From UHGV virus genome UHGV-0067929: DNA of 41,007 nt; one strand, given 5' to 3'. Positions 3,704-37,023 of this stretch are shown one piece after another. The notes below the pieces were generated by a model, which was not told the origin of the DNA, did no database searches, and worked only from the letters and a program-made list of their open reading frames with translations. This DNA comes from a virus. The stretch's first letter is position 1; each line of letters starts with the position of its first letter. A program made the translations under genes and the position numbers.

Positions 3704-4288
3704 TTATTGTTTGTTTTTTTCGTTCTGGTTGATGACAAATTCAATGTAACTTTCGATCTTTGCCTTCTCTGTTTCAGGTAACAATGCGTAGCGCGAGCGG
3801 TCATAGTTGATAGTTGCAGGGTCATGCGGATGGATCAGTAGTTCATATCCGTGACGCCCGAATGCAGATGCAACATTCTCCAGGGTGGAAATGGAAACGC
3901 TGACCTCATTGTTTAACAGGCGGCTTATTGTCACCTGGGCGACGCCGGATGCGCGGTGAAGTTTTCCCTGAGTTGAAAGGTCGCGGCTTTCACTCATCCA
4001 GCGTTCCAGGTTGTGAGCTGCCAGCTGACCAATGTCGCTTGGGCCGACAGGCTGAAAACCTTCCTGAGAAAGCGAGCGATCGATATCAAGCCAGTTACGG
4101 GGTTTATTGGCGGCAGCTTCAATTTTTCGCGCAACCTGGTCGCCGATAACCTTCTTGCCAAGAGCCCAGCGGTTTACCAGATTTGCCTGAGTTCCAAGTT
4201 TTTCTGCCATCCGCGTCTGAACACCATTGAATTCACGGTCGATCAAGTCGTTGAGATTTTGCCTGCGGACGTCCTGGATACTTTTCAT
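3704..4288 (-). CDS. CI-like prophage repressor with two HTH regions, no peptidase S24 domain
   Basis: 194 aa; HTH-like segments MAEKLGTQANLVNRW and SGVAQVTISRLLNNEVSVSISTLENVASAF; divergent from Cro-like gene with palindromic operators between. Confidence 0.65.
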   Translation of the reverse strand: MKSIQDVRRQNLNDLIDREFNGVQTRMAEKLGTQANLVNRWALGKKVIGDQVARKIEAAANKPRNWLDIDRSLSQEGFQPVGPSDIGQLAAHNLERWMSESRDLSTQGKLHRASGVAQVTISRLLNNEVSVSISTLENVASAFGRHGYELLIHPHDPATINYDRSRYALLPETEKAKIESYIEFVINQNEKNKQ

Positions 4289-4342
4289 TTTCTGGAAAAT
4301 CGCCTCATATATGAATCAGTAGATGATTCAATTTAAAGCAAT

Positions 4343-4359
4343 ATTACCCAACAGGTAAA
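4343..4359. promoter_or_regulatory. operator-like palindrome ATTACCCAACAGGTAAA (repressor/cro intergenic)
   Basis: Same ATTACC-N5-GGTAA pattern. Confidence 0.55.
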
Positions 4360-4381
4360 TGCACCTCATAGGTAACTATCC

Positions 4382-4410
4382 TTGATTTTTGTTACCTTAT
4401 GGGTGAATAT
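4382..4410 (+). promoter_or_regulatory. sigma70-like promoter for Cro-like gene
   Basis: TTGATT - 17 nt - GAATAT, 33 nt upstream of ATG 4443. Confidence 0.5.
4391..4407. promoter_or_regulatory. operator-like site GTTACCTTATGGGTGAA within spacer of cro promoter
   Basis: Imperfect copy; sits between -35 TTGATT (4382-4387) and -10 GAATAT (4405-4410). Confidence 0.5.
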
Positions 4411-4430
4411 TTATTATCTGAAATAAATAT
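4407..4430. promoter_or_regulatory. inverted repeat ATATTTAT-N8-ATAAATAT at cro 5' region
   Basis: 8-bp perfect arms overlapping the -10 and transcript start region. Confidence 0.35.
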
Positions 4431-4442
4431 CAGGCAATAGCT

Positions 4443-4673
4443 ATGAGCGATAACGGACATTTCGATTTCAAAAAGCACTGGCTTGCACTTACTCCGGATG
4501 AGCGTGAAGCCTTCGCACAGGAAGCCGGAACGACGAGTCACTATATCCAGACTCACTTAACAGGTAAGCGCAAAATGCCAGGTAAGGTATTGATGAATGG
4601 GCTTTTTAAAGCCTGTAAAACAAGACAATGGCTGCGCTCAAAAGCGGAACTGGCATACTTCTTCTACTCATGA
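4443..4673 (+). CDS. Cro-like small DNA-binding regulator
   Basis: 76 aa; position divergent from repressor, own promoter with operator in spacer; followed by an intrinsic terminator. Confidence 0.55.
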   Translation: MSDNGHFDFKKHWLALTPDEREAFAQEAGTTSHYIQTHLTGKRKMPGKVLMNGLFKACKTRQWLRSKAELAYFFYS

Positions 4674-4695
4674 TATCTGGCAACAACCCTCTGTA

Positions 4696-4717
4696 GACCG
4701 CCATCCGGCGGTCTTTT
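4696..4717 (+). terminator. intrinsic terminator after Cro-like gene
   Basis: GACCGCC-ATCC-GGCGGTC then TTTT. Confidence 0.6.
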
Positions 4718-4727
4718 CATATCTATT

Positions 4728-4744
4728 CGTACCTCAAAGGTAAT
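4728..4744. promoter_or_regulatory. operator-like site CGTACCTCAAAGGTAAT
   Basis: Half-site GGTAAT intact, left arm degenerate; upstream of replication genes. Confidence 0.4.
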
Positions 4745-4823
4745 AAAAAACCAAATCTGGTTGATCTTTTTTTTGTGTCAGCACAAAATGACCGTAATCC
4801 CAATACTAATAACAGGGCTTACC

Positions 4824-5024
4824 ATGGAAATCATTACACGTATTGATGCCGCAAAGCGCGGACTTAAACGCTACTACACCGGAAAAACATGTAAGCACGG
4901 ACATGACAGTGAACGCTGGGTTTACAACGGACACTGTGTTGAGTGCACCATGGAATCAAACCGTCGTATCAGGGCAGAGATTAAGCAGATCATGATTAAT
5001 TCCTCCCCACAACATTCAAGCTGA
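4824..5024 (+). CDS. small Cys/His-rich (zinc-ribbon-like) protein
   Basis: CKHGH...HCVEC spacing; start chosen at ATG 4824, the track TTG start at 4761 lacks support. Confidence 0.35.
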   Translation: MEIITRIDAAKRGLKRYYTGKTCKHGHDSERWVYNGHCVECTMESNRRIRAEIKQIMINSSPQHSS

Positions 5025-9995: not shown

Positions 9996-10003
9996 CATGT
10001 CAC
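9992..10003. repeat. 12-bp perfect palindrome GTGACATGTCAC (copy a)
   Basis: Module junction upstream of terminase. Confidence 0.6.
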
Positions 10004-10044
10004 GAGTAGATTATGCATGATGAATTTGATGTGTTTTGAATACT

Positions 10045-10070
10045 GCCGCCAACTATGGCGGCTTTATTTT
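10045..10070 (+). terminator. intrinsic terminator upstream of terminase operon
   Basis: GCCGCC-AACTAT-GGCGGC then TTTATTTT. Confidence 0.6.
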
Positions 10071-10080
10071 GCATGGTACT

Positions 10081-10097
10081 ATTACCACAACGGTAAC
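10081..10097. promoter_or_regulatory. operator-like palindrome ATTACCACAACGGTAAC upstream of terminase
   Basis: Same motif family. Confidence 0.5.
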
Positions 10098-10098
10098 T

Positions 10099-10115
10099 AT
10101 TACCACGGTGGTTAT
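10099..10115. promoter_or_regulatory. operator-like site ATTACCACGGTGGTTAT overlapping terminase small subunit start
   Basis: Left arm perfect, right arm degenerate. Confidence 0.4.
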
Positions 10116-10710
10116 GATGCCTGCTGAACCTAAAACCTATAAACGCAAATCAACGCAATTTAAGCCACTAACAGCAATGCAGGAGGCTTATTGCCAGTCA
10201 TACATCAAAACGCCTGAAAACCAGACTCAGGCAGCGATTAACGCAGGATTCTCTCCAAATACAGCGGCAGTTAAAGCCAGTGTCATGATGCGCGATGAAC
10301 GCATTCAAAAACGGATTGCCGAGCTGATGGAAGAGCGCAACAAGCGCCTGCGCGTCAGTGCTGATTATGTCCTGCTGCGCCTGGTGGAAATCGACCAGAT
10401 GGACGTGATTGATATCCTCAACGACGATGGGAGCCTTAAGCCAATCCGTGAGTGGCCGAAAATCTGGCGCACTACGCTTAGCGGCTTTGATCTGTCATCG
10501 ACCATCATGAACATGAACGAGGATTCGATAGAGACAATCCTCAAAAAAATTAAATGGCCTGACAAGGTGAAGAACCTCGAACTGATTGGTAAGCACGTCG
10601 ACGTCAACGCATTCAAAGAACGCCTGGATGTTAATGTGAATGTGACAATTGCTGATCGCATAGCGGCAGCCAGGAAGAGACTGAAAGAACGTCAGGATGG
10701 CAATCAGTGA
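10114..10710 (+). CDS. terminase small subunit
   Basis: Start at ATG 10114; AYCQSYIKTPENQTQAAINAGFSPNTAAVKASVMMR typical of Terminase_2-type small subunits; directly upstream of large subunit. Confidence 0.8.
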   Translation: MMPAEPKTYKRKSTQFKPLTAMQEAYCQSYIKTPENQTQAAINAGFSPNTAAVKASVMMRDERIQKRIAELMEERNKRLRVSADYVLLRLVEIDQMDVIDILNDDGSLKPIREWPKIWRTTLSGFDLSSTIMNMNEDSIETILKKIKWPDKVKNLELIGKHVDVNAFKERLDVNVNVTIADRIAAARKRLKERQDGNQ

Positions 10711-12182
10711 CAGATACAGCGTTATCTCCTGAAGAGCAGTTAATCGAGGATATTGCAGGGTTCACTCACGATCCGCTTGGCTATGCCCTCTATGCGTTCC
10801 CGTGGGGGGAAGAGGGGACTGAACTGGCACATGCTACCGGCCCACGTCAATGGCAGGCTGATGCGTTCCGAGAGATACGTGATCACCTGCAGAATCCAGA
10901 GACGCGCTATCAGCCGCTTATGCTGGCACGCGCTTCTGGTCACGGTATTGGTAAATCCGCATTCATCTCAATGCTGATCAACTGGGGCATGTCCACTTGC
11001 GAGGATTGTAAGGTCGTGGTGACCGCCAACACCGACAACCAGCTACGAACGAAGACCTGGCCGGAAATTATCAAGTGGTCGAACCTTGCTATCACGAAAG
11101 ACTGGTTTACCTGTACTGCTACCGCGATGTACAGCAATGACCCAGGGCACGACAAGCGGTGGCGGGCTGACGCAATACCCTGGTCTGAGCACAACACTGA
11201 GGCATTCGCCGGACTACACAACGAGCGCAAACGCATCATCGTGGTATTCGATGAAGCGTCGAACATTGCGGATCTGGTGTGGGAAGTTGCCGAGGGTGCG
11301 CTAACGGACGAAGACACTGAGATTATCTGGGTGGCGTTCGGAAACCCGACGCGTAATACCGGACGTTTCCGCGAATGTTTCCGCAAATATAAACACCGCT
11401 GGAAAACTGCGCAGATTGACAGCCGGACGGTGGAAGGCACTAACAAACAGCAGTTGCAGAAATGGGTTGATGACTACGGGGAAGACAGCGACTTCGTTAA
11501 AATCCGTGTGCGCGGCATATTCCCGGATGCATCTGAATTGCAGTTTATCCCTACCGGACTTACTGACGAGGCAATGAAACGGGTGGTCACCGCTGCGCAG
11601 GTTGCACATGCTCCGGTGATAATTGGCGTTGACCCGGCATACTCAGGCGTTGATGACGCGGTGATATACCTGCGGCAGGGGCTGCACAGTAAGGTGCTAT
11701 GGACTGGTAACAAGACCACCGACGATCTGATTATGGCGAAGCGTATCGCTGACTTTGAAGACCAGTACCAGGCTGACGCGGTGTTCATCGACTTCGGTTA
11801 CGGTACCGGTCTGAAGTCAATCGGTGACGGTTGGGGGCGTACATGGCAACTTGTTCCGTTCGGTGGCGCGTCTACTGACCCGCAGATGCTCAACAAGCGT
11901 GGGGAGATGTTCAATTCATGCAAGACATGGCTGAGGCTCGGCGGCATGCTGGATGACCAGGAAACTGCAGACGACCTGTCGGCGGCAGAGTACAAAGTTC
12001 GCGTGGACGGTAAAATCGTTATCGAACCGAAGGAAGATATCAAGGAGCGGCTTGGGCGTTCGCCGGGTAAAGGCGATGCGCTACTGCTGACGTTTGCTTT
12101 CCCTGTGTCGAAGCGTCTGCGAATTACCGGGCAGCAGAACCAGCAAGGCAAGGCCATCACAGATTACGATCCCTATGCTTAA
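10707..12182 (+). CDS. terminase large subunit
   Basis: 491 aa; ATPase motifs (ASGHGIGKS, IIVVFDEAS) followed by nuclease-domain Asp cluster (IGVDPAYSGVDD); GTG start overlapping small-subunit stop. Confidence 0.9.
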   Translation: MTDTALSPEEQLIEDIAGFTHDPLGYALYAFPWGEEGTELAHATGPRQWQADAFREIRDHLQNPETRYQPLMLARASGHGIGKSAFISMLINWGMSTCEDCKVVVTANTDNQLRTKTWPEIIKWSNLAITKDWFTCTATAMYSNDPGHDKRWRADAIPWSEHNTEAFAGLHNERKRIIVVFDEASNIADLVWEVAEGALTDEDTEIIWVAFGNPTRNTGRFRECFRKYKHRWKTAQIDSRTVEGTNKQQLQKWVDDYGEDSDFVKIRVRGIFPDASELQFIPTGLTDEAMKRVVTAAQVAHAPVIIGVDPAYSGVDDAVIYLRQGLHSKVLWTGNKTTDDLIMAKRIADFEDQYQADAVFIDFGYGTGLKSIGDGWGRTWQLVPFGGASTDPQMLNKRGEMFNSCKTWLRLGGMLDDQETADDLSAAEYKVRVDGKIVIEPKEDIKERLGRSPGKGDALLLTFAFPVSKRLRITGQQNQQGKAITDYDPYA

Positions 12183-12890: not shown

Positions 12891-12967
12891 TGGCGTGGCA
12901 TGCAGGATTCGAACCTGCGACCAACTGCTTAGAAGGCGGTTGCTCTGTCCAACTGAGCTAATGCCAC
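12891..12967 (-). tRNA. tRNA-Arg (anticodon UCU), phage-borne argU-like
   Basis: 77-nt cloverleaf read by hand: 7-bp acceptor stem GTGGCAT/ATGCCAC, D-arm TAGCTCAGTTGGACAGAGC, anticodon loop CTTCTAA, T-arm GCAGGTTCGAATCCTGC, CCA end; one C-A mismatch in anticodon stem. Confidence 0.8.
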
Positions 12968-29853: not shown

Positions 29854-30540
29854 TCAGAAGAACCCTGCTTTGTCGTTGATGTACTCCGCGTGCGTCTGGA
29901 TATCACGCAGGCATTTGTTCACACCGACGATGTAGCAGAACATGGTGGTCAACTCCGCCGCCGCGCCCGATACGTCGTGCCCGTCGTCCTGTAACTGGTT
30001 CAGCAGATTCATCAGCAGTGAGTTCTCCGTCAGGCCGAGAACACCAGACGGCGAGTGAATCAGGCTGCGGTAGCCGGGCTTCAGTGGGGCGCTGTAGGTT
30101 TTGTTCTCTATCTTCATTGCCTGCATCACTGCTGATGCTGTGGCGTTGGCTACTTGGTCGGCAACCATCTTTATGCGTTCTTCCTGCGGGAGCGAGTTTT
30201 TAATGTAACTTCCGGTGCGGCGGATCTGAGGAAGAACCTCACCTGTAACCCATTTACGAAAGCGGTATGGGATAGTGCCTGGTGTCACCGCATCGCGGCA
30301 GCGGAGGATCAGTGTGTAGAGGCCTGACTCGTTGATAATATTGGTTTCGCCTTGACGGCCTAAGTTAAATTTAGCCCTTTCATCATCATCAAGAGATTTT
30401 ATTGACATAGTGGGGTTTGTCAGTTGAAGAGCTTTAATAACGTCTTTGGCAACAAACCAAGGATTTCCATCAATAACAATGGCTCGAATGGTTGCTTCTG
30501 ATTCAAAATGAAAAACAGATGGGGTTACGTTAGCAGTCAT
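29854..30540 (-). CDS. Bro-N domain antirepressor-like protein, paralogue 1
   Basis: Start set to ATG 30540 by alignment with paralogues (MTANVTPSVFHFE...IRAIVIDGNPWFVAKDV Bro-N signature); constant C-terminal module shared with 31767-32459 and 33543-34238. Confidence 0.75.
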   Translation of the reverse strand: MTANVTPSVFHFESEATIRAIVIDGNPWFVAKDVIKALQLTNPTMSIKSLDDDERAKFNLGRQGETNIINESGLYTLILRCRDAVTPGTIPYRFRKWVTGEVLPQIRRTGSYIKNSLPQEERIKMVADQVANATASAVMQAMKIENKTYSAPLKPGYRSLIHSPSGVLGLTENSLLMNLLNQLQDDGHDVSGAAAELTTMFCYIVGVNKCLRDIQTHAEYINDKAGFF

Positions 30541-30770
30541 AGTGATCACCTTTGTAGTTAGGTTAATCACCACTACCGACGCCAATCGGTTGGTGGTGAA
30601 CTGTGCAGGGTTGGCGTAACCGGCTACAAAGGACCCGGCGCACCTTTCGGTGCCCCCACACAGCCCACCATAGAATAGGTGCGCTTTACACATAAAAAAA
30701 CCGCTTATGCGGCATATGTGCCTCTGTAGTAATCCGGGACGCCAATCCCGGCACTGGATTTTGCCAGTGC
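30541..30770 (-). ncRNA. structured leader RNA of Bro paralogue 1 (candidate c4-like regulatory RNA)
   Basis: Reverse-complement copy of the same leader; elements at 30721-30729 (mimic), 30624-30632 (anti-SD), 30549-30557 (SD). Confidence 0.45.
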
Positions 30771-30805
30771 CCGATTACTATGGCACAAGAGGAGTGCGAT
30801 GTAAA

Positions 30806-30822
30806 TTTACCGCAAGGGTAAT
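30806..30822. promoter_or_regulatory. operator-like palindrome TTTACCGCAAGGGTAAT at Bro paralogue 1 leader promoter
   Basis: Abuts -35 TTTACA (minus strand). Confidence 0.5.
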
Positions 30823-30968
30823 AATAGACACAGGTGGATATTAAAATCAACCATATTTGGTTAAGGTGTATAAAAGAGCCACCAGCGAGAAATTGTACCG
30901 CGATGTAAAATAACGAGCATCTGCTGGCTTACAACCAGCGATGTTTCAAATTTGTCACTACTATCAAC

Positions 30969-31367
30969 GTGCCATTCCACGGCGCAGAACTTTATGTTGT
31001 CAATCACAACGGAGAACCGTACACCCCAATGAAACCTATCGTTGAGGGAATGGGTATGGATTGGGCTGCTCAATTTGTTAAATTAAAACAGAGATTTGTC
31101 AAAGGTATTTCGGAAATCGAAATACCTTCTGCTGGCGGTAAACAGTTAATGATATGCCTTGCCTTTCGTAAGTTTGCGGCTTGGCTTTCAAGCATTCAGC
31201 CAAACAAAGTCCGTCCTGAAATCCGCGACAAGGTAATCCAGTATCAGGAAGAGTGTGACGATGTGCTCTACGAGTACTGGACTAAAGGCCATGTGGTTAA
31301 CCCACGCAAAGCTAAAAAGGCGTTGCCGGGTAAAATAACCACTGAACAGCAGGAGGTTTACACTTAA
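30969..31367 (+). CDS. phage antirepressor-like domain protein (Ant N-terminal-type), possibly 5'-truncated
   Basis: FHGAELYVVNHNGEPYTPMKPIVEGMGMDW...RKFAAWL...QEECDDVLYEYW; only a GTG start with no SD, no in-frame ATG upstream. Confidence 0.4.
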   Translation: MPFHGAELYVVNHNGEPYTPMKPIVEGMGMDWAAQFVKLKQRFVKGISEIEIPSAGGKQLMICLAFRKFAAWLSSIQPNKVRPEIRDKVIQYQEECDDVLYEYWTKGHVVNPRKAKKALPGKITTEQQEVYT

Positions 31368-31391
31368 CACTTGATTACATTAACACAAAAT

Positions 31392-31408
31392 ATTACCTTA
31401 AAGGTAAT
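31392..31408. promoter_or_regulatory. operator-like palindrome ATTACCTTAAAGGTAAT
   Basis: Perfect arms. Confidence 0.55.
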
Positions 31409-31484
31409 ATCTTGCTTTCAGGTGATCAAGCGTTAAACGCAATCAACCAAATACGGTTGATTTTAATGTTTCTTCGCGCTTATC

Positions 31485-31501
31485 ATTACCTTTACGGTAA
31501 A
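31485..31501. promoter_or_regulatory. operator-like palindrome ATTACCTTTACGGTAAA at Bro paralogue 2 leader promoter
   Basis: Abuts -35 TTTACA at 31502-31507. Confidence 0.55.
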
Positions 31502-31530
31502 TTTACATCGCACTCCTCTTGTGCCATAGT
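31502..31530 (+). promoter_or_regulatory. sigma70-like promoter of Bro paralogue 2 leader
   Basis: TTTACA - 17 nt - (TGc)CATAGT extended -10. Confidence 0.45.
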
Positions 31531-31536
31531 AATCGG

Positions 31537-31766
31537 GCACTGGCAAAATCCAGTGCCGGGATTGGCGTCCCGGATTACTACAGAGGCACATATGCCGCAT
31601 AAGCGGTTTTTTTATGTGTAAAGCGCACCTATTCTATGGTGGGCTGTGTGGGGGCACCGAAAGGTGCGCCGGGTCCTTTGTAGCCGGTAAGACCAACTCT
31701 GCACAGTTCACCACCATCTGATTGGTCTCAGCGGTGGTGATTAACCTAACTACAAAGGTGATCGCC
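31537..31766 (+). ncRNA. structured leader RNA of Bro paralogue 2 (candidate c4-like regulatory RNA)
   Basis: From predicted TSS: two GC hairpins (31536-31573), SD mimic CTACAGAGG (31578-31586), hairpin+U7 (31594-31613), GAAA-capped hairpin (31654-31667), anti-SD CCTTTGTAG in a loop (31675-31683), 8-bp hairpin (31708-31740), SD CTACAAAGG (31750-31758). Confidence 0.45.
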
Positions 31767-32459
31767 ATGAATACCAAACCTTCCATCTTTTCCTTTGAGT
31801 CATCCTGCCAGATCCGTATGTTCATGATTGACGGAGAACCTTGGTTTGTCACCAAAGATGTGTGCAATGCTTTGAATATTGATGTTACACAAGCGAGAAA
31901 ACTTGATAAAAAAGGCTGGAACAAAAAGGGGCTGTATTCAATACAGACCCCTGGTGGAATACAAGAACTATCCATAGTTTCAGAATCAGGTCTCTACATC
32001 CTTATTCTGCGTTGCAAAGAGGCAATGACTGAGGGAACGAGAGCATTCAGATTTCTTGAATGGGTTACAGGTGAGGTTCTTCCTCAGATCCGCCGCACCG
32101 GAAGTTACATTAAAAACTCGCTCCCGCAGGAAGAACGCATAAAGATGGTTGCCGACCAAGTAGCCAACGCCACAGCATCAGCAGTGATGCAGGCAATGAA
32201 GATAGAGAACAAAACCTACAGCGCCCCACTGAAGCCCGGCTACCGCAGCCTGATTCACTCGCCGTCTGGTGTTCTCGGCCTGACGGAGAACTCACTGCTG
32301 ATGAATCTGCTGAACCAGTTACAGGACGACGGGCACGACGTATCGGGCGCGGCGGCGGAGCTGACCACCATGTTCTGTTACATCGTCGGTGTGAGCAAGT
32401 GCCTGCGTGATATCCAGACCCACGCGGAGTACATCAACGACAAGGCAGGGTTCTTCTGA
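31767..32459 (+). CDS. Bro-N domain antirepressor-like protein, paralogue 2
   Basis: MNTKPSIFSFESSCQIRMFMIDGEPWFVTKDV Bro-N signature; SD CTACAAAGG 9 nt upstream; C-terminal ~145 aa near-identical to paralogues. Confidence 0.75.
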   Translation: MNTKPSIFSFESSCQIRMFMIDGEPWFVTKDVCNALNIDVTQARKLDKKGWNKKGLYSIQTPGGIQELSIVSESGLYILILRCKEAMTEGTRAFRFLEWVTGEVLPQIRRTGSYIKNSLPQEERIKMVADQVANATASAVMQAMKIENKTYSAPLKPGYRSLIHSPSGVLGLTENSLLMNLLNQLQDDGHDVSGAAAELTTMFCYIVGVSKCLRDIQTHAEYINDKAGFF

Positions 32460-32495
32460 CGGCGGCGGCACAGGGATGTGCCTTTAAATAATCCT
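32063..32495 (+). repeat. ~0.43-kb repeat R2 (3' half of Bro paralogue 2), inverted relative to R1/R3
   Basis: Reverse complement of 33543-33960 region with few mismatches. Confidence 0.8.
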
Positions 32496-32674: not shown

Positions 32675-33214
32675 GTGTTAAGTGAAGAAATGCAATTTGC
32701 CATGGCTGTGGCTCAAATCGTAAGTGCAGTCGCGGTTTCGCTTGGCTTGTTCATAGCTATCGCTACTATTATTTATAATGTAAATACAGCGAGAAAAGTA
32801 CACACTTCAGTATTCCTTGGTGAAAGCAGGTTTGATGTAGATTATAAGAAAGGCCTATCTACTATGCGCCGCATTCACGAGTCGAACAAATCATTCCGCT
32901 CTTATATGTATCCAAGCAATGGGCAGGCTGATCTTACGGATGAAGAAAAGATAGAGAAGAGAGAAATAATTTACTGTCTAGGTTTCTACGAACGCATGGC
33001 TGTGAGCGTGAAGCGGAAAACTTATGATGAGACCATGATTAAGGAAGTATTTTACAGCTCCGTTGTAAATAACTATCAGATTGCGCTACCTCTTATACAA
33101 GCTATTAGAGAAAAAGAAAACATAAACACATATTTTAAAGAATATGAATGGTTGGCCACACGATGGAAGGATTGTCCATTGAAGGATAAATCCCCGTGGT
33201 ACAAGTTTTGGTAA
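32675..33214 (+). CDS. membrane-anchored protein of unknown function (AT-rich moron)
   Basis: N-terminal hydrophobic helix (AMAVAQIVSAVAVSLGLFIAIATIIY) then ~140-aa soluble domain; markedly AT-rich coding region; followed by terminator. Confidence 0.6.
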   Translation: MLSEEMQFAMAVAQIVSAVAVSLGLFIAIATIIYNVNTARKVHTSVFLGESRFDVDYKKGLSTMRRIHESNKSFRSYMYPSNGQADLTDEEKIEKREIIYCLGFYERMAVSVKRKTYDETMIKEVFYSSVVNNYQIALPLIQAIREKENINTYFKEYEWLATRWKDCPLKDKSPWYKFW

Positions 33215-33236
33215 GCCCGCAGCGCGGGCTTTTTTG
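33215..33236 (+). terminator. intrinsic terminator after membrane protein gene
   Basis: GCCCGC..GCGGGC then TTTTTTG. Confidence 0.6.
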
Positions 33237-33307
33237 TGGATGAAACAAAAGTCAGTGCTACACTCATTGACGCCACATTGAGATGGCTTATAGATGGAAA
33301 TCTCACA

Positions 33308-33469
33308 ATGAAAAAAGCATTTGCTGCACTGTTCGTTTTGTTGTCTCTGGTGGCTTCAACTCAGGCCTCTGCTGGTCGTTGTCAGCACGACAGCGACACT
33401 GCTGCTGACGGCTCCCGCTGCGGCGGGCGTTCTGCGGATTCCCGCCCGGGTGGCGGTGGCATTCGTTAA
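33308..33469 (+). CDS. small secreted Cys-containing peptide (53-aa precursor)
   Basis: Canonical signal peptide MKKAFAALFVLLSLVASTQASA with AxA site; promoter-like TTGACG-N16-TATAGA upstream. Confidence 0.45.
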   Translation: MKKAFAALFVLLSLVASTQASAGRCQHDSDTAADGSRCGGRSADSRPGGGGIR

Positions 33470-33491: not shown

Positions 33492-34021
33492 TGTGACATG
33501 TCACGATAGTTCCGTTTTGCACATCCCTGTGCCGCCGTTCTGTCAGAAGAACCCTGCCTTGTCGTTGATGTACTCCGCGTGGGTCTGGATATCACGCAGG
33601 CACTTGCTCACACCGACGATGTAACAGAACATGGTGGTCAGCTCCGCCGCCGCGCCCGATACGTCGTGCCCGTCGTCCTGTAACTGGTTCAGCAGATTCA
33701 TCAGCAGTGAGTTCTCCGTCAGGCCGAGAACACCAGACGGCGAGTGAATCAGGCTGCGGTAGCCGGGCTTCAGTGGGGCGCTGTAGGTTTTGTTCTCTAT
33801 CTTCATTGCCTGCATCACTGCTGATGCTGTGGCGTTGGCTACTTGGTCGGCAACCATCTTTATGCGTTCTTCCTGCGGGAGCGAGTTTTTAATGTAACTT
33901 CCGGTGCGGCGGATCTGAGGAAGAACCTCACCTGTAACCCATTTACGAAAGCGGTAGGGGATAGTTCCTGGTGTCACAGCATCGCGGCAGCGGAGGATCA
34001 GTGTGTAGAGGCCTGACTCGG
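33492..34021 (-). repeat. ~0.5-kb repeat R3 (3' half and 3' UTR of Bro paralogue 3)
   Basis: Direct repeat of R1, 3.7 kb apart. Confidence 0.8.
33493..33504. repeat. 12-bp perfect palindrome GTGACATGTCAC (copy d)
   Basis: Other flank of the Bro island core, next to terminator hairpin. Confidence 0.6.
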
Positions 34022-34238
34022 AGATGATGATCGATTCTTGCTCACCGCCAGGGGTGTCGGTTGAAGCGACGCCCTTCTCATCATCATCAAGTTTTCGAAC
34101 AGCATCTCGATGGTTTGCTATGCCTATAGCCCGACAAACATCTGAAGCGATAAACCATGGCTCACCATTAATGACGATTACTCGTATATCGCCTTGGGAT
34201 TCGAAAGAAAAAATGGACGTGCTTTTTGTAGCTGTCAT
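33543..34238 (-). CDS. Bro-N domain antirepressor-like protein, paralogue 3
   Basis: MTATKSTSIFSFESQGDIRVIVINGEPWFIASDV; SD CTAAAAGG; constant C-terminal module. Confidence 0.75.
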   Translation of the reverse strand: MTATKSTSIFSFESQGDIRVIVINGEPWFIASDVCRAIGIANHRDAVRKLDDDEKGVASTDTPGGEQESIIISESGLYTLILRCRDAVTPGTIPYRFRKWVTGEVLPQIRRTGSYIKNSLPQEERIKMVADQVANATASAVMQAMKIENKTYSAPLKPGYRSLIHSPSGVLGLTENSLLMNLLNQLQDDGHDVSGAAAELTTMFCYIVGVSKCLRDIQTHAEYINDKAGFF

Positions 34239-34468
34239 AGTGGTTACCTTTTAGTCTGGTTAATCACCACTACCGACGCCAATCGGTTGGTGGTGAACTG
34301 TGCAGGGTTGGCGTAACCGGCTAAAAGGACCCGGCGCACCTTTCGGTGCCCCCACACAGCCCACCATAATACGAATGTGGCCGTGCTATACGCATAAAAA
34401 AACCGCTTGCGCGGTGAATGCGCCTTTTAGTAATCCGGGACGCCAATCCCGGCACTGGATTTTGCCAG
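34239..34468 (-). ncRNA. structured leader RNA of Bro paralogue 3 (candidate c4-like regulatory RNA, variant specificity)
   Basis: Same architecture; elements at 34423-34430 (mimic CTAAAAGG), 34321-34328 (anti-SD CCTTTTAG), 34247-34254 (SD CTAAAAGG), all changed in concert. Confidence 0.45.
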
Positions 34469-34506
34469 TGCCTGATTACTATGGCACAAGAGGAGTGCGA
34501 TGTAAA

Positions 34507-34523
34507 TTTACCGCAAAGGTAAA
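34507..34523. promoter_or_regulatory. operator-like palindrome TTTACCGCAAAGGTAAA at Bro paralogue 3 leader promoter
   Basis: Same position relative to leader as 30806 and 31485 copies. Confidence 0.5.
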
Positions 34524-34553
34524 TATAAGCACTCCGCTTGGTAATTGCAAACC

Positions 34554-34826
34554 TTATCTGGTTTGCTTTCGTAATTGTTCGGCACAATAGTCGAGATGTG
34601 TTTGCAGATCCTGCATAGACATCTGTGAGCTGGTGACGTAGTTAATCAGTGCAGTCAGTTCGGCAAGTGGGCCATCGACATTAAATCCATCCTTATCGAG
34701 ATCCCGGAGTAATTTCATCAAGTGCGATCCCTCCACCAGTGACCTGACGCCTCCCGGCGTGTGAATCCTTTCGGTAAATCCGTCTTCCAGTGGATAGTGA
34801 TACTGCTGCATCTTAATCTTCTCCAT
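34554..34826 (-). CDS. stand-alone homologue of the Bro paralogue C-terminal module
   Basis: 90 aa; RIHTPGGVRSLVEGSHLMKLLRDLDKDGFNVDGPLAELTAL...DLQTHLDY aligns with LIHSPSGVLGLTENSLLMNLLNQLQDDGHDVSGAAAELTTM...DIQTHAEY. Confidence 0.5.
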   Translation of the reverse strand: MEKIKMQQYHYPLEDGFTERIHTPGGVRSLVEGSHLMKLLRDLDKDGFNVDGPLAELTALINYVTSSQMSMQDLQTHLDYCAEQLRKQTR

Positions 34827-34887
34827 GCAATAACTGTATATTTATACAGTAGCAAATAATTTGTTTGCTATCCAGCACGTTTTGCAA

Positions 34888-34904
34888 ATTACCTGAAAGG
34901 TAAT
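34888..34904. promoter_or_regulatory. operator-like palindrome ATTACCTGAAAGGTAAT between C-module gene and tailspike
   Basis: Perfect arms in divergent promoter region. Confidence 0.55.
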
Positions 34905-35007: not shown

Positions 35008-37023
35008 ATGACGGTCTCAACCGAAGTTGACCACAACGAATACACAGGTAACGGCGTTACGACATCATTTCCGTACACCTTCCGTATTTTCAAAAAATCC
35101 GACCTGGTTGTTCAGGTGTCTGACCTGAACGGGAACGTAACAGAATTGGTTCTGGATACCGGTTATACGGTAACTGGGGCGGGCACTTATAGTGGCGGTT
35201 CTGTTGTTCTTCCGTCGCCGCTTGCTGCTGGATGGCGAATTACGATAGATCGTGTGCTTGATGTAGTGCAGGAGACAGACCTTCGCAATCAGGGAAAGTT
35301 TTTCCCCGAAGTGCATGAAGATGCCTTTGACTACCTGACGATGCTGATCCAGCAATGTTTTGGGTGGTTCAGACGTGCATTGATGAAACCATCTTTGCTT
35401 GCAAAATATTACGATGCAAAGCAAAACAGAATTTCTAACCTTGCAGATCCATCACTTGAGCAGGACGCTGTAAATAATCGCTCAATGCGTAATTATGTCG
35501 ATGCTGCAATCGCCGGAGTTGTTGGTGGTTTTGGTTGGTTTATTCAGTATGGTTCAGGCGCGGTATATAGAACGTTTCAGGATAAGATGCGGGATACTGT
35601 CAGTGTTCTTGACTTTGGCGCTAAAGGTGATGGAGTCACAAATGATACAGATGCTTTCATTGCCGCGGCATCTGCTTCGCCACAAGGTGTTTATGTTCCT
35701 GATGGCACGTATTTATTGCCGGAAGATATTAATGGAAGATTTTATGGCCCAGGAAAAATAATTAAAGAGACAGGAGCGGAACGAATTCCGTTTACCAATG
35801 TAGCTCAGTCTCATAGCAACCTTATTTTAGGTTATGATGCCGCAAAAAATTACACTGACTCTGGTAAAGGTAATCAATTGGTTTTGCTTGGACCAAGTTC
35901 TGGTCGCAACATAACTAGCGGCACTAACACAATCGTGGTTGGTGTGGGTGGTTTGTCAGGAGATACTCTAGAAGATGATCTTACAGATAAGTCGCCATTT
36001 TCTGGAACAGAGATTATCAGTATAGGTATTAATGCTTTGAAGAAAGCCACCACTGGAAATAACATGATTGGTATTGGCAGGGATGCGCTAAACGAGTGTA
36101 AGGATGGTAGGTTCAATGTTGCAGTTGGTATGTCAGCTTTGCAGCAACTCCATTCTGGAGAAGCTAATGTTGCAATAGGACGCTCTGCAGGAATGCGTAC
36201 TGGCATCTACACAGACCCTCAAGGTGTACGTCTTGGGTATAATAAATGTAATGGAAATACCCTTATTGGTAATGCAGCTGGTAGGGAGTTAAAGCAAGGT
36301 GATCATAACACAGCTATAGGTAATGGAGCATTGCGAGGAGTATCATCAACAGAGAACCCATACACTGGGACTCTCACAGGTAATTTTAATACAGCAATTG
36401 GTGTTGATGCTCTCAATTCCCTATCCTCAGGTGACCTGAATGTTATGATAGGAGCAAGAGCAGGAAGAAAATTACCAACTGGAAATGGTAATATTTTTAT
36501 AGGTCCAGATGCTGGTGCCGGAATATCAGAAGATACCTCCAATAAATTCATTGTAAATAATCACAAAGGATTGCCTTTTTTAGAAGGTGTTATGGGAGGC
36601 GCACAAGCGGAAGATAACTATTTGCGTATAGATGGTAGTGTTGCCCCCCAGATAGATAATCAAAGAACTTGTGGTCAATCTAGTCGTAGATGGCAAACTG
36701 TCTTTGCAACTAATGGTGTAATACAAACATCTGACGGTAGATGTAAAGATGTGTATGAGATATCTACGGCAGAGTATAGTGCAGGGCTAGAATTAGCCAT
36801 TAGCATGATAAAGTTTAAATGGACAGATGCAGAATCTGATAAGTATCACTTCGGATGTATGGCTCAAGAAGTAATGCTGATTATGGAGAAATATAATCTT
36901 AACCCTACAGACTATTCTCTGGTTACTTATGATAAAGAATCGGATATGTATGGTGTAAATTACGCTGACTTATCTTGTTTCTGTATTGCCGCTATGTCTA
37001 AACATTTATTACGAAGTGCGTAA
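35008..37023 (+). CDS. tailspike protein (conserved N-terminal particle-binding domain, beta-helix, C-terminal peptidase S74 intramolecular chaperone)
   Basis: DFGAKGDGVTNDTDAF pectate-lyase-like motif; C-terminal SDGRCKDV...FKW...HFGCMAQEV...VNYADL chaperone-domain pattern. Confidence 0.85.
   Translation: MTVSTEVDHNEYTGNGVTTSFPYTFRIFKKSDLVVQVSDLNGNVTELVLDTGYTVTGAGTYSGGSVVLPSPLAAGWRITIDRVLDVVQETDLRNQGKFFPEVHEDAFDYLTMLIQQCFGWFRRALMKPSLLAKYYDAKQNRISNLADPSLEQDAVNNRSMRNYVDAAIAGVVGGFGWFIQYGSGAVYRTFQDKMRDTVSVLDFGAKGDGVTNDTDAFIAAASASPQGVYVPDGTYLLPEDINGRFYGPGKIIKETGAERIPFTNVAQSHSNLILGYDAAKNYTDSGKGNQLVLLGPSSGRNITSGTNTIVVGVGGLSGDTLEDDLTDKSPFSGTEIISIGINALKKATTGNNMIGIGRDALNECKDGRFNVAVGMSALQQLHSGEANVAIGRSAGMRTGIYTDPQGVRLGYNKCNGNTLIGNAAGRELKQGDHNTAIGNGALRGVSSTENPYTGTLTGNFNTAIGVDALNSLSSGDLNVMIGARAGRKLPTGNGNIFIGPDAGAGISEDTSNKFIVNNHKGLPFLEGVMGGAQAEDNYLRIDGSVAPQIDNQRTCGQSSRRWQTVFATNGVIQTSDGRCKDVYEISTAEYSAGLELAISMIKFKWTDAESDKYHFGCMAQEVMLIMEKYNLNPTDYSLVTYDKESDMYGVNYADLSCFCIAAMSKHLLRSA

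Follow-up and report, generated by a model that had tools for sequence, protein, structure and literature searches.

A short open reading frame on the minus strand of the window (the whole stretch of DNA analysed, 41,007 nucleotides) raises the question of what its product does and how it is related to the Bro-type proteins encoded around it. In a sequence-only reading, a 90-aa gene at this place had been described as a free-standing copy of the constant C-terminal module of the Bro paralogues; the mechanically called ORF lies at 34554..34826 (-) and has exactly the sequence quoted there. When the 90-aa product was searched with phmmer against all PDB sequences, a single match was obtained, to chain E of entry 5D50, an 86-aa 'Anti-repressor protein' (E = 4.4e-47). 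ORF residues 7-89 aligned with residues 3-85 of that chain, 73 of the 83 positions (88%) being identical. According to its title, 5D50 shows Rep and Ant of the temperate Salmonella phage SPC32H in complex, with Ant as chains E-H; the publications on this protein and structure are Kim & Ryu 2013 (J Virol 87:11775) and Kim et al. 2016 (PNAS 113:E2480). For the window Ant, an AlphaFold model (pLDDT 79.7; predicted helices at residues 12-15, 19-27, 30-40 and 46-84) gave significant Foldseek matches in the PDB only to chains G and H of 5D50 (E = 2.6e-7 and 3.6e-6; TM 0.70-0.86), and the next-best PDB match had E = 4. Searches of the 90-aa protein in Pfam, NCBIfam and PADLOC yielded nothing meaningful, since the matches to DUF724 and UpsF fell far under the cut-offs, and Bro-N (PF02498) did not match it. 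The sequence-only reading could not assign the module to a named domain family; neither Pfam nor NCBIfam has a model for it, but the protein is both named and structure-solved, as Ant in 5D50. PHROG 450, the family of the free-standing Ant, is labelled 'unknown function'.

By sequence, fold, size, synteny, LexA box and cognate Rep, the window gene is a member of the SPC32H Ant family. The locus as a whole is best explained, with a probability that we put at about 0.88, as ant, the gene of a small SOS-controlled antirepressor of epsilon15-like (Uetakevirus) temperate phages. DNA searches placed the window in the epsilon15/phiV10 group, genus Uetakevirus; its ant region is 95-98.5% identical to that of phiV10, ZX5 and their relatives and was found in 543 of 5426 complete E. 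coli genomes (~10%). The annotated ant of SPC32H (SPC32H_020) has the same location in its genome, flanked by the last virion gene and a divergent tailspike gene, and the gene order in the window matches that of SPC32H_019/020/021, the tailspike gene at 35008..37023 (+) diverging from ant. When the ant-tailspike spacers of the window, SPC32H and phiV10 were aligned, the conserved start codon was the second ATG, which gives a product of 85 aa. In SPC32H and phiV10 the counterpart of the first ATG (34826) lies in another frame; in the window a 1-nt insertion brings it into frame and creates a spurious N-terminal extension of five codons. The start was reassigned to the second ATG because of this and because the annotations of phiV10, ZX5 and RefSeq give 258 nt, or 85 aa. 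A Shine-Dalgarno GGAG upstream of this start is invariant across the three spacers. The coordinates of ant and of the features discussed below are collected in Table 1.

Table 1. Position of ant, its predicted control elements and the related features in the window.
Feature	Position	Strand	Remarks
ant, predicted LexA-controlled antirepressor	34554..34811, stop codon included	-	85 aa; assigned by SPC32H Ant homology, fold and dN/dS
Shine-Dalgarno GGAG	34821..34824	-	9 nt before ATG 34811; overlaps the spurious first ATG
Predicted LexA (SOS) box TACTGTATAAATATACAGTT	34832..34851	-	18/20 to E. coli consensus TACTGTATATATATACAGTA; 7 nt 5' of the first ATG
TTACCTGAAAGGTAA palindrome, putative Rep operator	34889-34903	.	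Between ant and the divergent tailspike gene
rep, prophage repressor, SPC32H Rep homologue, presumed Ant target	3704..4288	-	Matches 5D50_A at E = 4e-42, full length
Control region of Bro paralogue 3	34286..34550	-	Begins 4 nt past the ant stop codon; promoter/terminator scan, Rfam
Paralogue 3 promoter TTGCAA-17-TATATT	34550-34522	-	Promoter scan
TTACC-N5-GGTAA site of paralogue 3	34508-34522	-	Motif scan
isrK RNA with terminator	34396-34471	-	Rfam 77.9 bits (GA 50)
C4 antisense RNA	34286-34371	-	Rfam 77.7 bits (GA 45)
37-aa leader ORF	34244..34357	-	Ends 5 nt before the Bro3 ATG; ZX5 'ash family protein'
Ant-like module of Bro paralogue 3, residues 146-231	33543..33803	-	Gene 33543..34238; 42% identity to Ant
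Ant-like module of Bro paralogue 2	32199..32459	+	Gene about 31767..32459
Ant-like module of Bro paralogue 1	29854..30114	-	Gene about 29854..30543

Immediately 5' of ant lies a LexA box that the sequence-only reading had overlooked, with its core CTGTATAAATATACAG at 34849-34834 on the minus strand. The 41-kb window has no other AT-rich CTGT-N8-ACAG site. Its position is kept in SPC32H, phiV10, ZX5 and locus L004, and boxes with one mismatch precede the more distant free-standing ant homologues at loci L005 and L006. A scan with a simple sigma-70 consensus found no ant promoter; assigned by eye, the -35 and -10 hexamers read TAGCAA-18-TATAAA, and the probable -10 hexamer TATAAA falls inside the LexA box. 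By homology, LexA is predicted to bind this box and to control ant. In 2013, Kim and Ryu reportedly traced SPC32N, a clear-plaque variant of SPC32H, to a point mutation in the LexA site that renders Ant constitutive. The gene had also been said to stand behind an operator-bearing promoter. A TTACC-N5-GGTAA palindrome is indeed present in the spacer, as that description requires, but it is separate from the LexA box, lying upstream of it by ~40 nt and separated from the likely ant -35 hexamer by ~23 nt. Read on the other strand, the palindrome falls between a TTGCAA and a weak -10, so that its target may be the tailspike promoter and not ant.

In the window, TTACC-N5-GGTAA was counted 16 times, where 0.85 occurrences would be expected. 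The sites cluster between and beside rep and cro (3570, 3632, 4344, 4392 and 4729) and are also found in front of each Bro cassette. SPC32H has the same motif with the same clustering, including a site in the ant-tsp spacer. Because of this clustering round rep and cro and its recurrence in SPC32H, the motif is probably the Rep operator, a reading based on position. The C-terminal domain of the Rep homologue encoded in the window matches 5D4Z_A (E = 4e-20), the crystallised form of that domain in SPC32H Rep. Between the two phages Rep has diverged much further than Ant (42% against 88% identity), a difference that tells against a simple transfer of the Rep-Ant interface.

Prophage induction is proposed to follow the course worked out for SPC32H. 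In the lysogen, host LexA would occupy the box overlapping the ant promoter and keep ant off. Upon DNA damage, LexA would be cleaved and Ant made, and the Ant tetramer would bind the C-terminal domains of Rep. The DNA-binding Rep tetramer would then be split into dimers, the TTACC-N5-GGTAA operators would be released, and the prophage would be induced. Binding to Rep and disruption of its tetramer are carried over here by homology; since the two Ant proteins are so similar, occupy the same slot behind the same LexA box and are accompanied by homologous Rep proteins, this mechanism is very probably at work in the window phage as well. According to papers that cite the primary work, the antirepressor is made after LexA self-cleavage and inhibits the repressor through protein-protein contact (PMC7380047), the C-terminal tetramerisation domain of Rep is the contact for Ant (PMC9986798), and Ant holds the repressor in a conformation that does not function (bioRxiv 2025.11.27.690993). 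Citing papers also describe SPC32H Ant as a homotetramer.

Three Bro paralogues are encoded in the window; besides the two aligned next, there is paralogue 1 at 29854..30543/30693 (-). BLASTP aligned the 90-aa ORF with paralogue 3 (33543..34238, -) and paralogue 2 (31722..32459, +) equally well, with 33 of 78 residues identical (42%), 58% positives and no gaps, at E = 1e-16 for each single pairwise comparison; in the PDB-wide search, paralogue 3 matched 5D50_E at E = 1.9e-13. The similarity between the small protein and the Bro C-termini, on which the sequence-only reading was built, is thus real and far beyond chance. Each paralogue consists of Bro-N (Pfam E = 2e-13 and 2.3e-21 for paralogues 2 and 3) followed by a tail that has no Pfam match and that matches PHROG 450 (E = 6e-36). 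Apart from one substitution, the three proteins agree over their last ~130 residues, of which the final ~80 align with Ant. At the DNA level, the leaders of the three cassettes are near-identical and the Bro-N parts are 28-70% identical. Over the last ~400 nt (module plus linker), paralogues 2 and 3 are 100% identical; paralogue 1 shares 100% with them from ~400 to 150 nt before the stop and 94-96% in the final ~150 nt. Repeated in both direct and inverted orientation, these cassettes make the region a patchwork, and a lone N-domain ORF, P22_AR_N, is also found in it (30969..31367).

Such a patchwork, in which the P22_AR_N ORF at 30969..31367 indicates that split pieces do occur, could mean that the 90-aa ORF is the decaying 3' remnant of a fourth Bro-type gene. 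The comparison of ant with SPC32H ant gave dS 1.64 and dN 0.082, and a dN/dS of 0.05 against an orthologue with saturated synonymous sites indicates strong purifying selection on the Ant protein, not a leftover fragment. SPC32H has ant without any Bro gene, and its Ant protein has been crystallised. Besides, ant has its own Shine-Dalgarno sequence and LexA box, and free-standing ant genes keep a length of 85-89 aa across genera. Ant shares no more than 42% identity with the neighbouring modules, whereas those modules are ~100% identical to each other. The remnant explanation therefore has a negligible probability, and a pseudogene fragment was rejected on the dN/dS value and on the presence of ant in SPC32H, which has no Bro gene.

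The tail of paralogue 3 has predicted helices at residues 160-163, 167-175, 178-188, 194-210 and 214-230, which are in register with the Ant helices at an alignment offset of 148, and the residues invariant across the family of free Ant proteins are also kept in the fused modules. AlphaFold modelled full-length paralogue 3 with a confident Bro-N and a low-confidence C-terminal module (pLDDT 46-78). This model was left out of the fold search, and the case for a common fold is made from sequence and helix register. The fused modules form a sequence subgroup of their own (YI-G...DIQTHA-YI) as against free Ant (NYVTSSQ...DLQTHLDYC). With 37-42% identity, the Bro module is, to all appearances, an old, diverged paralogue of the Ant domain, so that the Bro paralogues would be composite antirepressors made of an exchangeable N-domain and an Ant-like module. 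By homology, the fused module presumably targets Rep as well. The Bro proteins are relatives of Ant by domain only and stand outside the strict Ant gene family, because they are fused to Bro-N, have no LexA box (none was found before the Bro paralogues in the window scan for AT-rich CTGT-N8-ACAG) and carry an isrK and C4 leader instead.

The whole paralogue 3 protein is 99% identical to ORF4 of ZX5, an 'anti-repressor' whose overexpression lowered the prophage titre ~1000-fold, from 10^9 to 10^6, and repressor transcription by 75% (PMC9782041). The ZX5 study took this Bro-type protein as 'the' anti-repressor and identified neither the small ant nor the homology of the tail (PMC9782041). Another explanation of the fusion is that the module serves solely as an oligomerisation (tetramerisation) scaffold while the N-domains act on other targets, such as co-resident prophage repressors or DNA; the likeness to Ant would then say nothing about Rep binding. 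In favour of this, Ant is described as a homotetramer, so that part of its conserved surface serves self-association, and the N-domains are the parts that vary, with 28-70% DNA identity in Bro-N as against 100% from ~400 to 150 nt before the stop and 94-100% in the last 150 nt. The separate subgroup of the fused modules and the low AlphaFold confidence for the monomeric module point the same way. However, the residues invariant in the free forms are invariant in the fused forms too, and the module was found only in phages and prophages that also have a free ant and, where checked, the context of an SPC32H-type Rep. It is absent from Gifsy-1 and P1-type phages, whose Bro-N or c4 cassettes have other C-termini, and ZX5 ORF4 shifts the lysis-lysogeny balance of its own phage (PMC9782041). 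A pure scaffold is thus a minority possibility of some weight, and we prefer to read the fused module as Ant-like in function.

The distribution of the module was examined by an exhaustive profile (HMM) search of 1.84 billion representative proteins, which found it in 60 clusters. The fused forms required this search, as a word-indexed homologue search with Ant returned close stand-alone relatives only. Most of the 60 clusters consist of proteins of 81-96 aa that stand alone. Where a longer protein has a full-length match, the module always lies at the extreme C-terminus, behind Bro-N, AntA, Phage_pRha or ORF6N. Modules 93% identical to each other are joined to Bro-N in the window and to AntA at locus L004. 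These observations bear out the suggestion that the module is an autonomous unit: its free form has been crystallised, most clusters are stand-alone, and it has four kinds of N-domain partner. The 93% identity across different N-domains, together with the separate subgroup of fused modules, points to an old split between free and fused forms that was followed by N-domain swapping. At loci L004-L006, the fused gene (with AntA, pRha and ORF6N N-domains) adjoins a free-standing ant and a tailspike gene in each case, and every fused copy examined has an isrK and C4 leader before the gene and a free-standing ant adjacent to it. Among 50,697 phage records, the module was present in 32; the ones checked or annotated belong to Uetakevirus, and the others are Klebsiella or Enterobacter phage records. 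It was not found in the Gifsy-1 and P1 records of this set. This restricted occurrence speaks for the module, and not the N-domain, as the part that is matched to the SPC32H-type Rep.

As had been stated, paralogue 3 follows directly downstream of ant and shares its strand. The spacer of 315 nt holds the promoter of paralogue 3 together with its isrK and C4 RNA leader. Rfam searches of the window found three C4 RNAs (74-79.5 bits, GA 45) and three isrK RNAs (76.8-77.9 bits, GA 50), one pair on the same strand 5' of each paralogue, and the model of the c4 a1/b1 target (RF03163; gathering score 46.7) fell slightly short of its threshold with 43.6-45.1 bits. The isrK and C4 leader also precedes the AntA, pRha, ORF6N and Bro-N fusions at loci L001, L002, L004, L005 and L006. 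We propose that the Bro paralogues are expressed from putative Rep-operator promoters through a leader of the P1-c4/Gifsy-1-isrK type, not through LexA. The placement of the 37-aa leader ORF suits translational coupling to Bro3, which is predicted here.

No terminator was found by the scan between the ant stop (34554) and the isrK terminator (34396-34415). This terminator-free stretch and the common strand would allow ant and paralogue 3 to form one operon, in which Ant acts chiefly as a partner or regulator of Bro through mixed oligomers and not directly on Rep. The two proteins share a homologous module that, judging from the published descriptions of Ant, oligomerises, and in all contexts examined the free copy and the fused copy are neighbours. 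Against this, SPC32H Ant works alone, in a phage without a Bro gene, and co-crystallises with Rep, paralogue 3 has its own promoter and RNA leader, and ant and the fused gene at locus L006 are convergent, not co-directional. We regard an operon of this kind as quite improbable and retain Ant as the direct antagonist of Rep.

The ant gene itself is already known, and its assignment is an annotation fix, not a discovery. Ant has a solved co-crystal structure and a worked-out mechanism, yet it is still a 'hypothetical protein' in RefSeq, phiV10 and ZX5, as it is of 'unknown function' in PHROG. A literature search of incomplete coverage on SPC32H together with Bro-N found no description of the fusion. 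Three features seem not to have been described before: the shuffling of the Ant-like module as C-terminal partner among N-domains of four families, the way in which a free copy under LexA is regularly paired with a fused copy under RNA control, and the threefold amplification of Bro::Ant-like cassettes in the window. With these, the C-termini of Bro-N, AntA, Rha and ORF6N proteins become readable as Ant-like, presumably Rep-binding, modules. Since the free copy has a LexA box and the fused copy an isrK and C4 leader, epsilon15-like prophages would typically place one effector domain under two control systems. This provides a testable model of SOS-dependent as against SOS-independent (or anti-immunity) induction in these phages. 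In the absence of a terminator between the ant stop and isrK, LexA cleavage would also drive isrK transcription and give an IsrK-like RNA. That the two triggers are coupled, by such read-through or by mixed Ant/Bro tetramers, is a doubtful proposition, to which we attach little probability. If it were true, a brief SOS pulse, acting through Ant, would be turned into a self-sustaining commitment by Bro::Ant-like proteins under the control of Rep operators, and a second specificity would come from the interchangeable N-domains, such as the cross-induction of other prophages or anti-immunity against them.

Among known systems, SPC32H is the closest. The window Ant shares with SPC32H Ant the 88% identity, the size (85 vs 86 aa), the fold, and the position and orientation beside the tailspike gene; the Shine-Dalgarno sequence, LexA box, homologous Rep and TTACC-N5-GGTAA sites are likewise common to both phages. 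For this orthologue, the contact between antirepressor and repressor has already been answered by the Rep-Ant co-crystal 5D50. The differences are the host (Salmonella for SPC32H, E. coli for the window phage), the 42% identity of Rep, the 1-nt insertion, which SPC32H lacks, and the Bro cassettes: SPC32H has none, whereas three Bro::Ant-like cassettes come after ant in the window. Tum of coliphage 186 and GfoA/GfhA of the Gifsy prophages (Lemire et al. 2011) are small LexA-repressed proteins that bind and inactivate non-cleavable prophage repressors. Ant is alike in logic, and a sequence relationship to these antirepressors was not detected in the Pfam, NCBIfam and PDB searches. SPC32H Ant is said to have been called 'structurally distinct' from the antirepressors of Sipho- and Myoviridae by Kim and Ryu in 2013.

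A further comparison, with P1/P7 and Gifsy-1, concerns the Bro paralogues and not the 90-aa gene. The immI operon of P1 and P7 has the architecture c4 antisense RNA-icd-ant. Like the Bro paralogues, P1/P7 immI and Gifsy-1 present a promoter, isrK or a1b1 with a terminator, C4, a leader ORF and a Bro-N gene. In isrK-orf45-anrP of Gifsy-1, it is the short IsrK RNA that allows the leader ORF to be translated and, by coupling, the antirepressor as well (Hershko-Shalev et al. 2016, PMC4825925), and the 37-aa leader ORF is the positional counterpart of Gifsy-1 orf45 (PMC4825925) and of P1 icd. Unlike Gifsy-1 and P1, where the Ant-like C-terminal module was not found, the window prophage has promoters carrying TTACC-N5-GGTAA and three copies of the isrK/C4 cassette in one prophage. 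Domain-shuffled phage regulators of the Bro-N, KilA-N, AntA, Rha and ORF6N types, with swappable N- and C-modules, were reportedly described by Iyer, Koonin and Aravind in 2002 (Genome Biol), and the Ant-like module behaves as one more C-terminal partner in this scheme. To our knowledge, it is not among the named C-terminal partners (KilA-C/ANT, ORF6C, Bro-C and others). It has no Pfam model and differs from most such partners in having, in its free-standing form, a solved structure and a known ligand.

All three cassettes of the Bro paralogues, in which Bro-N is fused to a C-terminal Ant-like module, showed a mosaic structure. The RNA leader was near-identical among the cassettes, and the final ~400 nt (linker and Ant-like module) shared 94-100% identity, while the Bro-N coding portion was merely 28-70% identical. 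Such a pattern of identity suggests that the cassettes were shaped by gene conversion or N-domain swapping and not by simple duplication. Paralogues 2 and 3, which are convergent, form a 535-nt inverted repeat.

Features of the Bro region, the palindrome sites and the tRNA gene
Feature	Position	Strand	Support
Bro cassette 1	29854-30840		
Bro cassette 2	31470-32459		
Bro cassette 3	33543-34560		
isrK (RF01394) + C4 antisense RNA (RF01695) pair	30589-30770	-	> gathering score
isrK (RF01394) + C4 antisense RNA (RF01695) pair	31537-31718	+	> gathering score
isrK (RF01394) + C4 antisense RNA (RF01695) pair	34286-34471	-	> gathering score
132-aa ORF, P22_AR_N antirepressor N-terminal domain alone	30969-31367	+	Pfam E=8e-42
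Cargo, two proteins, between paralogues 2 and 3	32675-33469	+	
TTACC-N5-GGTAA sites, 15 nt each	3570, 3632, 4344, 4392, 4729, 6675, 6737, 10082		
TTACC-N5-GGTAA sites, 15 nt each	10100, 13290, 30807, 31393, 31486, 32531, 34508, 34889		
tRNA gene	12894-12967	-	68 bits

Each paralogue is headed by its own isrK and C4 pair, and in phiV10, in ZX5 and in three metagenomic or genomic relatives the same leaders were found 5' of the genes for the fused antirepressors. The 5' ends of the mechanical ORFs at 29854-30693(-) (279 aa) and 31722-32459(+) (245 aa) extend back across this C4/isrK leader, as does a 319-aa gene call (10001-10960) in L005, a relative carrying a fused gene beside a free ant. For the two window genes, Bro translation most likely begins at an internal ATG (30543 and 31767, respectively), and many 279-aa database entries appear to be over-extended in the same way.

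The P22_AR_N ORF, which is flanked by cassettes 1 and 2 and has no C-terminal module, may be an N-domain stranded by an earlier swap. At its end lies a 36-nt inverted repeat (31364-31436) with a TTACC-N5-GGTAA site at its centre. Of the two cargo proteins, one is a DUF4760 protein of 179 aa that belongs to PHROG 2284 (unknown function), and the other, of 77 aa, matches a moron family labelled 'membrane associated protein'. A perfect inverted repeat of 19 nt (32463-32481 / 33519-33537) flanks the cargo, for which PADLOC gave no match.

The window holds 16 copies of the TTACC-N5-GGTAA palindrome, where 0.85 would be expected; SPC32H has 18. Its sites cluster around rep/cro and stand at the head of several transcription units, including all Bro cassettes. 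This palindrome is probably the operator of Rep, the prophage repressor; if so, many promoters genome-wide would be under Rep repression.

Within 34396-34554(-), the stop codon of ant, the free-standing antirepressor gene, is followed by the promoter/isrK element of paralogue 3 with no terminator between them. Since the first terminator 3' of ant is that of isrK, ant transcripts made under SOS conditions are predicted to carry an isrK copy.

The Bro gene of phiV10 (4260-4939) has its Ant-like module divided between PhiV10p23 (194 aa) and PhiV10p22 (29 aa), and tblastn gave two pieces with 86% coverage. Judging from this split, the fused copy is probably frameshifted in phiV10; the free ant (p24) is intact. 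The tRNA gene of the window, which lies early in the structural region, corresponds in position to the tRNA-Arg of SPC32H.
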